A stretch of DNA of 64,000 bases, taken from NCBI GenBank assembly GCA_963717145.1, contig OY970325.1, positions 4,192,001 through 4,256,000 on the forward strand, read 5' to 3'. The DNA comes from an uncultured Armatimonadetes bacterium. Its GTDB lineage: Bacteria > Armatimonadota > UBA5829 > DTJY01. The notes beneath the pieces were generated by a model. The model did no database searches. It was not told where the DNA came from and worked only from the letters and a program-made list of their open reading frames with translations. Below are positions 6,391 to 13,650 of this stretch, piece after piece. The position numbers and the translations under genes were made by a program. Each line of letters opens with the position of its first letter. Positions within the stretch are counted from its first letter, which is position 1.

Positions 6391-6424
6391 GAAAATGCGG
6401 GCAGCGTCTCGGTTCGCTGCCCGC
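6391..6424 (-). terminator. Probable intrinsic terminator downstream of the sigma/ATPase pair
   Basis: gcgggcagcg-N8-cgctgcccgc followed by ATTTTC on the minus strand. Confidence 0.55.
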
Positions 6425-6479: not shown

Positions 6480-7805
6480 CTACCGCCACTCCAATATCCG
6501 ATGCGCCTCCTCGGCAGTCGTGATGCCCTCCAACACCCTCTGTCGGGCGTCGTCCACCATCGTCTTGAAGCCGTCCGCAACCGCCTGTGCCAACAGGACG
6601 TCCGGATCGACCTGGCCGCTCGCGATCATCCTGCTCAGGTCACGGTCAATGATCAGCACCTCGTGTAGCTGACTTCGCCCGCGGAAGCCGGACCCCTTGC
6701 ACGTCTCGCATCCCTTGCCGCGCTGGAACTTGGCATTCCCCTCGAGTCCGTGCAGACCCAGGAAGCGGAGGGCCTCCTCTGATGGCGTGTACTCCTCCCG
6801 GCAGTCTGGGCACACCATCCGGGCGAGCCGCGCGGCGACTACGCCGATCAGGTTCTGCCCGATGATCCATGGATCCACCCCGAACGCCGCCATGTGCTGC
6901 GGTATTGAGGTGGCATTGCCCACAGAGGTCTGAGTGAGCACCAGATGTCCCGTGTGTGCTGCCTCCGATGCGAGCACCATCGATTCGTAGTCACGCACCT
7001 CGCCGATCATGAGCACATCGGGGTCCTGGCGCAGGTAGGCGCGTACCGCCGACGCGAAGGTGAGGCCGGCTCGGGGGTTCACCTGCGTCTGCTGTATGCC
7101 TCTGAGTTGGTACTCGACAGGATCCTCCACAGACACGATGCTGATGTCGGACCTGGGTAGCTCCAGTATCATGGAGTACATCAGCGTCGTCTTGCCGGAA
7201 CCGGCCGGGCCCGTGCAGACTATGATCCCATTCGGCCGCCGTACAAGTTCCCTCACGGTCTCCAGTTGTTCGTCGGAAAAGCACATCTTGTCCAGGCCGA
7301 GGAGCGGTGTCCCTCTGTCGAAGATGCGCAGTACCATCTTCAAGCCGTATATCGACGGTACGATCGATACGCGCAGATCATACTCCTTGCCGTCTCTCCT
7401 CACGGGAAGCCGCCCATCCTGGGCGATTCGGTTCTCAGTGAGCGATACCTCGGCCATCATCCTGACGCGCGCCGTCACAGCGTCCTGCTCCTTTTTCGAG
7501 AGCGTTCTGTCGGGCCGCAGAACGCCGTCGATCCTATACCTGATGTCCATTCCGTCAGCCGTAGGGTCGAAGTGGATATCTGAGGCGCCGCTCTCGATGC
7601 CTTTCATAATGATCTCGTTGGCCATCTTGATGACCCACACTTCGTCCGCGGCCTGCGTGTCGGCCAGTACGCGCCTGGCCGTCTCGAGTTCGCGCTGGCA
7701 GCCGTGGCACCGCGCCAGGTGCTCGTCGACCTCCTTGCCAAACTCCGCGCTCAACTCGCCCTTCAGATAGGCGATCAACTCATCACGAATCTCTTCGCAT
7801 TTCAT
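6480..7805 (-). CDS. zf-HC2 (ZAS) anti-sigma domain fused to GspE/PilB-family ATPase
   Basis: N-terminal C-EEIRDELIAYL..GEL..HLARCHGC; then ASDIHFDP, Walker A GPAGSGKT, Asp box EDPVE, Walker B DPDVLMIGEVRD, CPDC..CETC Zn motif. Confidence 0.85.
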   Translation of the reverse strand: MKCEEIRDELIAYLKGELSAEFGKEVDEHLARCHGCQRELETARRVLADTQAADEVWVIKMANEIIMKGIESGASDIHFDPTADGMDIRYRIDGVLRPDRTLSKKEQDAVTARVRMMAEVSLTENRIAQDGRLPVRRDGKEYDLRVSIVPSIYGLKMVLRIFDRGTPLLGLDKMCFSDEQLETVRELVRRPNGIIVCTGPAGSGKTTLMYSMILELPRSDISIVSVEDPVEYQLRGIQQTQVNPRAGLTFASAVRAYLRQDPDVLMIGEVRDYESMVLASEAAHTGHLVLTQTSVGNATSIPQHMAAFGVDPWIIGQNLIGVVAARLARMVCPDCREEYTPSEEALRFLGLHGLEGNAKFQRGKGCETCKGSGFRGRSQLHEVLIIDRDLSRMIASGQVDPDVLLAQAVADGFKTMVDDARQRVLEGITTAEEAHRILEWR

Positions 7806-7859
7806 CTGATATCCTCCATTGTAGGAAAAGCATGGTTAATGGGCAGACGGCGTGAACCA

Positions 7860-8426
7860 TCAACCATCAGCCATCAACCATTTCCTCAGTATTCTTACTG
7901 CCGCCGACATCCTGGATTTCACGGTTCCAATCGGTATCTCCAGAATCTCGGCGATCTCTGCATACTTCATCTCCTGGAACTGGCTCAACACAAAGACCAG
8001 CCGATAGTGATCCGGCAACTCCGCGATCGCCTGCCTGATCCTTCGATCCTCATACCGCCGAATGAGAAGCTTCTCGAGGCCGGATTCGTCCTCGATAGGC
8101 TGCCATGTCTCCTCAAGGAACATCGCTTCCGGACGGCATTTGCGCCTCCTTAGCGCCGACAGCCAGTGGTTGCGAGCGATCTTGAAGATGTACGACCGGA
8201 ACGCTCCCGTCGGCTCGTATCTGACTCTCGCGAGCCAGAGGCAGACGAACACCTCCTGCGCGTAGTCCTGGGCCGCATCCGCGTTCCAGCACAGGGAGTA
8301 GAAGAAGCCCGAGAGCTGCCGCCGGTACCTGCGGATCAGCTCATCGAACGCTTCCTCGTCGCCCATTTTCACTTGGAGCATCAATTGTGTTTCCGGATCG
8401 CAGCACAGTTGCGCGCATTCCATCAT
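7860..8426 (-). CDS. ECF sigma-70 family factor
   Basis: Region 2 (DYAQEVF, FKIARN) and region 4 (YAEIAEILEIPIGTVKSRM). Confidence 0.92.
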   Translation of the reverse strand: MMECAQLCCDPETQLMLQVKMGDEEAFDELIRRYRRQLSGFFYSLCWNADAAQDYAQEVFVCLWLARVRYEPTGAFRSYIFKIARNHWLSALRRRKCRPEAMFLEETWQPIEDESGLEKLLIRRYEDRRIRQAIAELPDHYRLVFVLSQFQEMKYAEIAEILEIPIGTVKSRMSAAVRILRKWLMADG

Positions 8427-8490
8427 CGCCGCCTCACTTATACAGAATGCTTTTCGCGCCAAAAGGTTCGCGCAACGCATGAAGGTTTCC

Positions 8491-8519
8491 TTGACAAGCA
8501 ATGTGGGCCACACTACAAT
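8491..8519 (+). promoter_or_regulatory. Sigma-70 promoter of trxA
   Basis: TTGACA-N17-TACAAT. Confidence 0.7.
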
Positions 8520-8557
8520 GGGCGTCGAACGACATAATGGGATCGAGGAGGAACGAA

Positions 8558-8881
8558 ATGAGCAATGCACTGGCGGTTACCGCCGAGGATTTCGATAAGG
8601 AAGTACTTCAGTCCGAAATACCCGTGCTCGCCGATTTCTGGGCGGACTGGTGTGGGCCGTGCAAGGCCCTGGGCCCGACGATCGATGCGATCGCAGATGA
8701 GACCGCCGGAAAACTCAAGGTAGTGAAGGTCGATACGGACAAGGCGCCTTCCGTCGCCGCGAAGTATGGCATCATGAGCATCCCGACGCTGATCCTGTTC
8801 AAGAAGGGCGATGTCATCGAGCAGATGGTCGGCATGATGCCCAAGCAGTCGATCATGGCGAAGGTAACGCCTCACCTGTAG
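8558..8881 (+). CDS. trxA: Thioredoxin
   Basis: WCGPC active site, MSIPT; RBS GAGGAGG. Confidence 0.97.
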   Translation: MSNALAVTAEDFDKEVLQSEIPVLADFWADWCGPCKALGPTIDAIADETAGKLKVVKVDTDKAPSVAAKYGIMSIPTLILFKKGDVIEQMVGMMPKQSIMAKVTPHL

Positions 8882-12884: not shown

Positions 12885-13022
12885 GTAGGGGCGAAACATT
12901 GGCCGATCATGCTCCACCGAGTGATCGCAGCACATGCCAATGGTTCGCCCCAGACCAGGCGAACCATTGGCGATTGCCAAGGCAGGTCACCGGTATCAGA
13001 TGGGCCAACGTTTCGCCCCTAC
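12885..13022. repeat. Cluster of four REP units upstream of RAYT
   Basis: GTAGGGGCGAAACATTGGCC, GCCAATGGTTCGCCCC, GGCGAACCATTGGC, GGCCAACGTTTCGCCCCTAC. Confidence 0.9.
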
Positions 13023-13041
13023 AGGTAGGTGGGAGGACAAC

Positions 13042-13650
13042 ATGCCGTTTGATCCGGAACATCATCACCGCCGTTCGATCAGGGTGTCAGGCCACGACTA
13101 CACCGTCGGCATGTACTTCGTTACGATGTGTACGCAGGGTCGCCAATGCCTTTTCGGCGAGATCATTGGTGGAACAATGGACTTGAGCCCCGCAGGCAGG
13201 ATTGTGCATGCGTACTGGGAGAGCATACCCAGGCGTTTCCCCCACGTGGTCCCAGATGCCTTTGTGATCATGCCGAATCATCTACACGGGATCCTCTGGT
13301 TCCGAGAACGGGGCGAACCATTGGCGGCTAGATCTGATCAGTTGGTCGACGTTCGAAGGGCCAATGTTTCGCCCCTACACCATGGCGTTGACCGGCGGGC
13401 CAATGTTTCGCCCCTACACGCTACGCCCGACGGAGCCCCTGCCGGTTCGCTCGGAGCTATGATTCAGGGCTTCAAGTCCTCCACGACGATCAGGATCAAC
13501 AGGGTAAACCGCACTCCGGGTCGAACAATATGGCAGCGCAACTACTACGAACACATCGTCCGCAGCGAGAAATCGCTTGATGCCATCCGGCAATACATCG
13601 AGGCCAATCCGACCGGCTGGCTGCACGACCCGGAGTATGTCAACCAGTGA
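13042..13650 (+). mobile_element. rayT: REP-associated tyrosine transposase (RAYT, Y1 HUH)
   Basis: RRSIR..HDY, YFVTMCT, HUH motif MPNHLHGI, WQRNYYEHIVR, YIEANP; flanking and internal REPs. Confidence 0.93.

Follow-up and report, generated by a model that had tools for sequence, protein, structure and literature searches.

The closest described systems to the locus reported here are the class I zinc-type anti-sigma (ZAS) factors. In pairs such as ChrR/SigE, RsrA/SigR, RsiW/SigW and RslA/SigL, the anti-sigma factor carries an N-terminal helical bundle with the motif H-x3-C-x2-C and an upstream Cys, and its gene lies directly behind that of an autoregulated extracytoplasmic function (ECF) sigma factor. 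ChrR is a soluble ZAS domain joined to a C-terminal sensor domain, a cupin. SpoIIAB and RsbW are ATP-binding anti-sigma factors in which a nucleotide-binding module governs the grip on sigma; both are kinases of the GHKL type, and both work together with an antagonist protein through partner switching. In the FlgM/sigma-28 and DnaK/sigma-32 systems, a machine component or effector sequesters the very sigma factor by which it is expressed, and engagement of the machine frees that factor. For the class I domains, PMC7406223 describes helices 1-3 as binding region 4 of sigma (sigma-4) and a flexibly linked helix 4 as binding region 2 (sigma-2) and blocking core RNA polymerase. The present study concerns a two-gene locus at positions 6480-8426 of a stretch of 64,000 nucleotides, hereafter the window, from an uncultured Armatimonadetes bacterium (GenBank assembly GCA_963717145.1, contig OY970325.1, positions 4,192,001 to 4,256,000 of the forward strand). 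Sequence comparison and modelling show a bicistronic, apparently autoregulated ECF module, the second gene of which encodes a soluble three-helix zinc-type anti-sigma bundle rigidly joined to an ATPase of the PilB type (hereafter the fusion).

The fusion has the N-terminal bundle, the zinc motif and the gene position of the class I factors, and its sigma partner resembles ECF sigma factors of the SigW/RpoE/AlgU type. It differs from these systems in having helices 1-3 only, helix 4 and the flexible linker being replaced by a rigidly attached ATPase domain, in having no membrane anchor, and in carrying a secretion-type ATPase as its C-terminal module. The fusion would thus act as a class I ZAS anti-sigma factor, although helix 4, a hallmark of the class, is missing. 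It falls short of the equivalog model for the redox-responsive RsrA-type factors (TIGR03988, 26.1 bits against a cut-off of 62.5), and control of a thiol-stress gene was not seen by motif scan. With the extension motors PilB and GspE the fusion shares the N2D and C-terminal domain (CTD) fold, the Walker A, Asp-box and Walker B motifs and the tetra-Cys zinc site, and with MshE it shares the placing of a regulatory domain at the N-terminus. In contrast to the PilB/GspE motors, it has no N1/MshEN domain, is unlinked to platform and pilin genes, scores below the equivalog cut-offs, branches as a clade of its own and has lost part of the His box. With SpoIIAB and RsbW the fusion would share a nucleotide-dependent hold on sigma; fold and sigma family are unrelated, and no antagonist gene was seen at the fusion locus. 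The feedback logic may be like that of FlgM/sigma-28 and DnaK/sigma-32, judging from the self-targeting promoter described below, but the proteins are different, and in the fusion a single polypeptide comprises both the putative sequestering domain and the motor. The features of the locus, all on the minus strand, are as follows.

6397-6424, minus strand: intrinsic-terminator-like hairpin (10-bp stem with 9 G-C pairs, then ATTTTC)
6480-7805, minus strand: whole fusion gene (441 aa plus stop), with zf-HC2 and T2SSE matches and an AlphaFold2 model
6498-7652, minus strand: PilB/GspE-type ATPase core (N2D and CTD), fusion residues 52-436, from T2SSE and Foldseek
7650-7805, minus strand: zinc-type anti-sigma domain, fusion residues 1-52, from zf-HC2, hhalign and the helices of the model
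7806-7859, minus strand: intergenic spacer of 54 nt with the ribosome-binding site GGAGGA ahead of the fusion ATG, read directly
7860-8426, minus strand: ECF sigma factor gene (188 aa plus stop), with Sigma70_r2, Sigma70_r4_2 and TIGR02937 matches
8444-8469, minus strand: ECF-type autoregulatory promoter GAACCTTTT-N11-CATTCT, a motif common to orthologous loci

A first-pass annotation of the window, made from the letters alone, had described a ZAS N-terminus joined to PilB/GspE behind an ECF sigma gene. This architecture is borne out by both Pfam matches, and the right-hand coordinate, 8426, agrees. In the fusion, zf-HC2 matched residues 3-37 (E 9.3e-8, 32.5 bits, cut-off 22.2) and T2SSE matched residues 52-436 with nearly its whole profile (positions 2-370 of 370, E 1.9e-101). 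The open reading frame (ORF) of sigma extends at its longest over 7860-8570; the ATG at 8426 was taken as the start by alignment with 13 orthologues. The sigma protein has the composition of an ECF factor, with regions 2 and 4 only and a score of 96.4 bits against the superfamily model TIGR02937 (cut-off 42.9), and its nearest solved relatives are 6in7_B, SigW 5wuq_A and RpoE 1or7_A. As had been claimed, the fusion gene takes the usual place of an anti-sigma gene, directly downstream of the ECF sigma gene on the same strand. The claim that the protein is soluble and without a transmembrane helix also stands, with Pfam matches tiling residues 3-436 and a model composed of soluble domains throughout (no dedicated transmembrane predictor was used).

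The zinc ligands of the N-terminal domain are C3, H29, C33 and C36, that is, the H-x3-C-x2-C motif of ZAS domains with a fourth ligand upstream. Among 38 members of the family, H29, C33 and C36 are invariant and C3 is nearly so, and zinc binding is predicted from these residues. Aligned by hhalign with 13 ordinary ZAS anti-sigma factors of the membrane type, the N-termini of the fusions gave a probability of 98.8 and an E-value of 1e-16; the alignment spans residues 1-52 only and ends exactly at the start of the T2SSE match. Fifteen ordinary anti-sigma factors of 158-307 aa from other phyla came up in the same scan as the fusions. Their N-termini resemble those of the fusions and are accompanied by a helix-4 segment and a membrane helix, and each factor is encoded behind an ECF gene. 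An ECF sigma gene was directly upstream in all 21 loci found with the N-terminal motif.

The AlphaFold2 model of the fusion has a mean predicted local distance difference test score (pLDDT) of 91.8 and a predicted template modelling score (pTM) of 0.84. Its first helices span residues 3-14, 20-32 and 34-53, and the last of these runs, after two residues, into the N2D helix 56-71. The distance from C36 to D76, which lies in the N2D motif GASDIH, is 41 residues in 38/38 members, and indels are tolerated elsewhere in the protein. As modelled, the junction of ZAS domain and ATPase is rigid and not a tether. The fusion retains helices 1-3, the bundle that in class I factors binds sigma-4, and the first helix of N2D stands where helix 4 would be. 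The host genome also encodes a 443-aa protein (L134, C1:3063087-3064415, minus strand) with a zf-HC2 N-terminus of the same type fused to tetratricopeptide (TPR) repeats, and the N-terminal domain is therefore used modularly. In relatives, ZAS-like N-termini open very long ORFs of 1731 aa (G246) and 1506 aa (G194), and a 512-aa ZAS protein without an ATPase lies behind a sigma gene in G104 (L132).

The ATPase part was compared with solved structures by Foldseek. The model matched the extension motors PilF (5oiu_B), PilB (5tsh) and EpsE (1p9w) with a target-normalised template modelling (TM) score of about 0.9, and superposition on these gave a root-mean-square deviation of 2.2-2.6 A at 35-40% identity. 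Retraction motors of the PilT type fitted much worse. Across the 38 members, the Walker A Lys is kept in 36, the Asp-box residues in 35-38, the catalytic Glu in 33 and the first His of the His box in all; Walker B and the tetra-Cys site are also kept. In the window protein, K205 belongs to Walker A and E269 to Walker B. The core had been called complete in the first-pass annotation, which is correct for the T2SSE match, full-length as it is, but not for the His box, the second histidine of which is Ser294 in the window protein. No Pfam match to N1/MshEN (T2SSE_N, GSPE_N1E) was found in the fusion, and zf-HC2 stands there instead. The equivalog scores are below the cut-offs for both GspE (416.5 against 630.25) and PilB (371.2 against 675.65). 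A part in a defence system was also considered and rejected, PADLOC having given only P-loop-level matches for the fusion (E 1.5e-4 and 5e-4) and none for sigma.

The host genome is closed, a single contig of 5.37 Mb. Besides the fusion, its T2SSE family comprises four canonical full-length PilB/GspE genes, one split gene of the PilB type, and several PilT-type and other members. At C1:2504598-2505745, a partial T2SSE match to profile positions 122-368 lies next to another to positions 3-130, with a few bases in common; together they are maybe a frameshifted or split PilB gene, and a PilT gene and a platform gene adjoin it. The platform genes of the host (PF00482) lie beside canonical PilB operons or alone at about 1.90 and 3.97 Mb, none of them near the fusion, and ten sampled genes of the window are unrelated to the pilus or type II secretion system (T2SS) apparatus. 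The earlier statement that no pilC, gspF or pilin genes are adjacent agrees with these results.

The fusion recurs in protein databases and in genomes, far more often than chance would allow. Among the 120 best protein-database clusters, 34 carry zf-HC2 and T2SSE and 4 more align over their full length with the zinc motif; these 38 clusters are 435-454 aa long and 41-76% identical to the window protein. The next-best matches are ordinary PilB proteins of about 575 aa with T2SSE_N. An exhaustive profile search of 1.84 billion representatives gave 17 full-length fusion-type clusters among the best 150. The top 14 matches of the representative search (P0121-P0134) are proteins of ~1000 aa with two T2SSE matches each, that is, tandem double ATPases of the PilB type. 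The ESM Atlas holds one cluster of 165 members (T2SSE in 100%, zf-HC2 in 59%), with Armatimonadota as the commonest phylum and an automatic name only. Within the phylum, 401 genomes were searched with the whole protein and then with an N-terminal profile of 64 residues, and 30 of them, in 14 families, proved to carry the fusion. One further genome came from a scan of all species genomes, for which the profile was built from a 5-row subset and which missed the 'MNC' subgroup, giving 31 genomes in total. In a tree of 83 sequences, 45 fusions and one derived copy form a single clade with a Shimodaira-Hasegawa-like approximate likelihood ratio (SH-aLRT) support of 100, against 37 canonical ATPases. 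The tree therefore indicates that the fusion arose once and was retained.

Two carriers deserve separate mention. One contig with a typical sigma-fusion pair (L059, NZ_CAXXTL010000002.1) bears the depositor label 'uncultured Desulfobulbus sp.', which could not be confirmed; all other named carriers are Armatimonadota. In G085, a 387-aa duplicate of the ATPase without the ZAS domain (L044, 7435-8598, minus strand) lies 239 nt downstream of the fusion, past a hairpin, and nests within the fusion clade. The duplicate has a degenerate His box, QMLVEDA, and the fusion of the same genome retains LHTDDA.

The linkage of the fusion to sigma is equally constant. An orthologous sigma gene is adjacent to the fusion in 31/31 genomes, directly upstream on the same strand in 30 and downstream in one (G211), and the check proposed with the first-pass annotation, that the fusion be consistently next to an ECF gene, has thereby come out in its favour. 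The sigma gene of G211 lies about 360 nt downstream of the fusion and scores 230 bits against 141 for the next-best ECF of that genome; the flipped order is probably a rearrangement. Upstream of the fusion in G211 there are about 900 nt of repeat-rich, apparently non-coding DNA (L125, 640-1580). Among 16 loci of canonical PilB genes fetched in the same search, none has a sigma gene within 1.5 kb. The sigma stop and the fusion start overlap by 4 nt in 9 of 16 fusion loci, and no conserved neighbour other than sigma was found in the 16 loci with wide flanks. Pairwise identities of sigma and of the ZAS part are correlated with r = 0.92, a value reached in 0 of 2000 permutations, and mean identity is 56% for the ZAS part and 47% for the ATPase, the former being no less conserved than the latter. 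As judged from these comparisons, the correlation shows co-inheritance of sigma and ZAS part as a unit, though shared phylogeny contributes to it.

The layout of the operon is one promoter ahead of sigma and one terminator behind the fusion, from which co-transcription of the two genes is predicted. The promoter ends 17 nt ahead of the sigma ATG, and the terminator hairpin starts 56 nt past the fusion stop codon. The motif GAAC[CA]TTTT-N11-C[GA]TTCT occurs upstream of sigma in 11 of 13 orthologous loci tested. A looser two-box form precedes sigma in 8 of 13 more distant loci, compared with 3 of 436 windows taken as background, this pattern having been picked after the sequences were viewed and the 13 loci being related to one another. 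The strict motif has one match in the 5.37 Mb of the host genome, and that is the operon's own promoter; with a position weight matrix the own promoter scores 30.0 bits and the next-best host site 21.7, no better than noise. Applied to five relatives, the exact pattern recovered sigma's own promoter in every case, together with 4 extra matches against 3 in a reversed-pattern control, and the own promoter is an outlier with 0-1 mismatch in all five. With up to 2 mismatches, the five genomes gave 11, 18, 26, 25 and 84 matches against 14, 15, 17, 33 and 62 in the control. Overall the extra matches are no more than the control gives, and the genes downstream of them share no homology. As far as motif scanning shows, the only target of sigma is its own operon.

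The first-pass annotation had suggested that sigma and fusion be modelled together. Complex prediction with sigma and fusion residues 1-175, each supplied as an alignment, gave a score of 0.60 (runs 0.61, 0.57 and 0.60), and the best of three controls scored 0.11. At least 73% of contacts are common to the runs, and the partner pLDDT is at least 79. In the calibration, 58 of 80 solved complexes and 2 of 110 mismatched pairs reached the mark; only 7 of the 80 solved complexes, but both mismatches, did so at a score of 0.60 or lower. The suggested modelling has lent weak support to the pairing. The pass may reflect likeness to known structures because complexes of ECF sigma and anti-sigma factors have already been solved. 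Given the high prior from homology and linkage, the prediction is mildly confirming.

In the proposed working of the module, the three-helix bundle would bind region 4 of the partner sigma and keep it off the operon promoter. The ATPase body would decide between holding and release, its first N2D helix sitting at the place of the sigma-2-binding helix 4. Control could run through nucleotide-dependent movement of N2D, through hexamer formation, or through docking to a pilus or secretion platform in competition with sigma. Because no target promoter can be recognised besides that of the operon, the main effect of release would be to make more of both proteins, sigma and ATPase, in a titration feedback. 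For the same reason, the ATPase may be output as much as sensor; the first-pass annotation had proposed a sensory module that couples sigma release to nucleotide state or to co-assembly with the pilus/T2SS motor. This model, with sigma-4 held by the bundle and the grip controlled by the ATPase body, is considered to have slightly better than even chances. A fuller version is possible but on balance doubtful. In it, the state of the motor (nucleotide, hexamer or docking) would be read out as transcription via a sigma sequestered by the three-helix zinc domain on N2D, without membrane anti-sigma, proteolysis or partner switching; the N2D helix would replace helix 4, and movement of N2D would gate the grip on sigma-2.

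Several findings weigh against the proposed working. Helix 4, credited with the block of core RNA polymerase, is not detectable in the fusion, the homology of which ends at residue 52, and for this reason full inhibition by so short a domain is not assured. In RpoE, R149 and R178 contact D11 of RseA, according to PMC7406223. An equivalent Arg-Asp contact between helix 1 and sigma-4 was not found on the sigma side, which was the side compared, the positions aligned with R149 and R178 being Ser/Ala and Val. The second histidine of the His box is kept in 25 of 38 members and lost in 13, so that ATP hydrolysis may be impaired in this lineage; a hydrolysis-driven mechanism is doubtful there because the box is degenerate in these 13 members, the window protein included. 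The support from the complex prediction is weak. In the 16 loci with wide flanks the fusion is never beside platform or pilin genes, and a linked partner for docking is thus missing there. In addition, that no further targets appeared may be due to what motif scanning is able to detect, and not to biology.

Among the other explanations, a thiol/zinc redox switch of the RsrA type survives best, although it is unlikely. Oxidation of the cysteines and loss of zinc would free sigma, and the ATPase would be cargo or effector and not the sensor; such a switch is compatible with a bundle whose grip the ATPase body controls. The C-H-C-C ligand set, invariant or nearly so over the 38 members, would suit it, as would the weak match to TIGR03988 given above, but a zinc motif can be purely structural, as in RsiW (PMC7406223). 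A thioredoxin gene lies upstream of sigma and divergent from it, both in the window and in G085. In the window it occupies 8491-8881 on the plus strand, with a likely start at 8558 and a near-consensus sigma-70-type promoter, TTGACA-17-TACAAT, at 8491-8519. Thioredoxin was tried as a linked target and rejected, being adjacent in only 2 of 16 loci (the window and G085) and having this promoter of its own, and the same two facts count against the redox switch. No thiol-stress gene carries the ECF promoter in the host and the five relatives scanned, and the invariant rigid attachment to a conserved ATPase is left unexplained by a redox mechanism.

It is distinctly unlikely that the motor comes first, that is, that the fusion is a working paralogue of a pilus or T2SS extension ATPase serving an unlinked platform, with the ZAS tip only feeding back on its expression or acting as an assembly checkpoint. 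Such a motor would fit the fold, far closer to PilF, PilB and EpsE than to PilT, and the conserved Walker A, Asp-box, Walker B and tetra-Cys motifs. The host has platform genes without a linked ATPase (at about 1.90 and 3.97 Mb), sigma has no detectable target besides the fusion operon, and the duplicate behind the fusion of G085 does without the ZAS domain. However, the host already owns four canonical PilB/GspE genes, and the fusion has no N1/MshEN domain and in none of the 16 loci adjoins a platform or pilin gene. Its scores against the equivalog models of GspE and PilB are far under the cut-offs, and 13 of 38 members, the window protein included, have lost the second histidine of the His box.

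There is little chance that the zinc finger does not bind sigma at all and that the genes adjoin because sigma transcribes the ATPase gene. The shortness of the domain, the missing helix 4, the weak complex prediction and the absent charged contact of RseA and RpoE speak for this, but the N-terminus is strongly homologous to anti-sigma N-termini that are always behind ECF genes, its zinc ligands are invariant, and the 4-nt gene overlap and the tight co-divergence of sigma and ZAS part also count against it. A misassembly or a gene-calling artefact fusing two genes, for which no supporting point was found, is excluded for practical purposes because the same fusion, one unbroken ORF with an indel-free junction, recurs in 31 genomes and 38 database clusters that form one clade and the host genome is a single closed contig; the fusion is thus neither the singleton nor the misassembly that had been named among the risks to the first-pass annotation. 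Five public sequencing runs contain at most 8% of the sampled words of the sequence, and no RNA data set is listed, so that the check on the junction proposed with that annotation is answered by recurrence.

Of the neighbouring genes, ychF lies downstream of the fusion. Farther along the window, at 12934-13650 on the plus strand, a 238-aa ORF without a Pfam match at E 1e-5 contains RRANVSPLH twice in tandem. An ANVSPL-like string also occurs close by in an overlapping frame, perhaps because of a short repeat in the DNA.

To our knowledge, there is no earlier case of a motor of the PilB family physically wired to transcription. No description of a ZAS-T2SSE protein was found in the literature searched, including the available parts of PMC7826278, PMC7406223 and PMC12943098, and supplements of ECF classifications could list the group; the first-pass annotation likewise knew of no described system with such an architecture. 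The module comprises two genes, one promoter and one terminator. Because it is compact, autoregulated and apparently without other targets, it can be tested directly with heterologous reporters, and it could become an orthogonal sigma switch that responds to nucleotide or motor state. It also offers a natural case in which a class I anti-sigma domain either functions or fails to function in the absence of helix 4, which bears on how sigma factors are inhibited. ECF sigma factors are a main route of bacterial signalling, and the module placed on the sigma-binding domain sets what an anti-sigma factor senses. If the proposed reading is true, a secretion or pilus ATPase would be a new class of input for anti-sigma factors.

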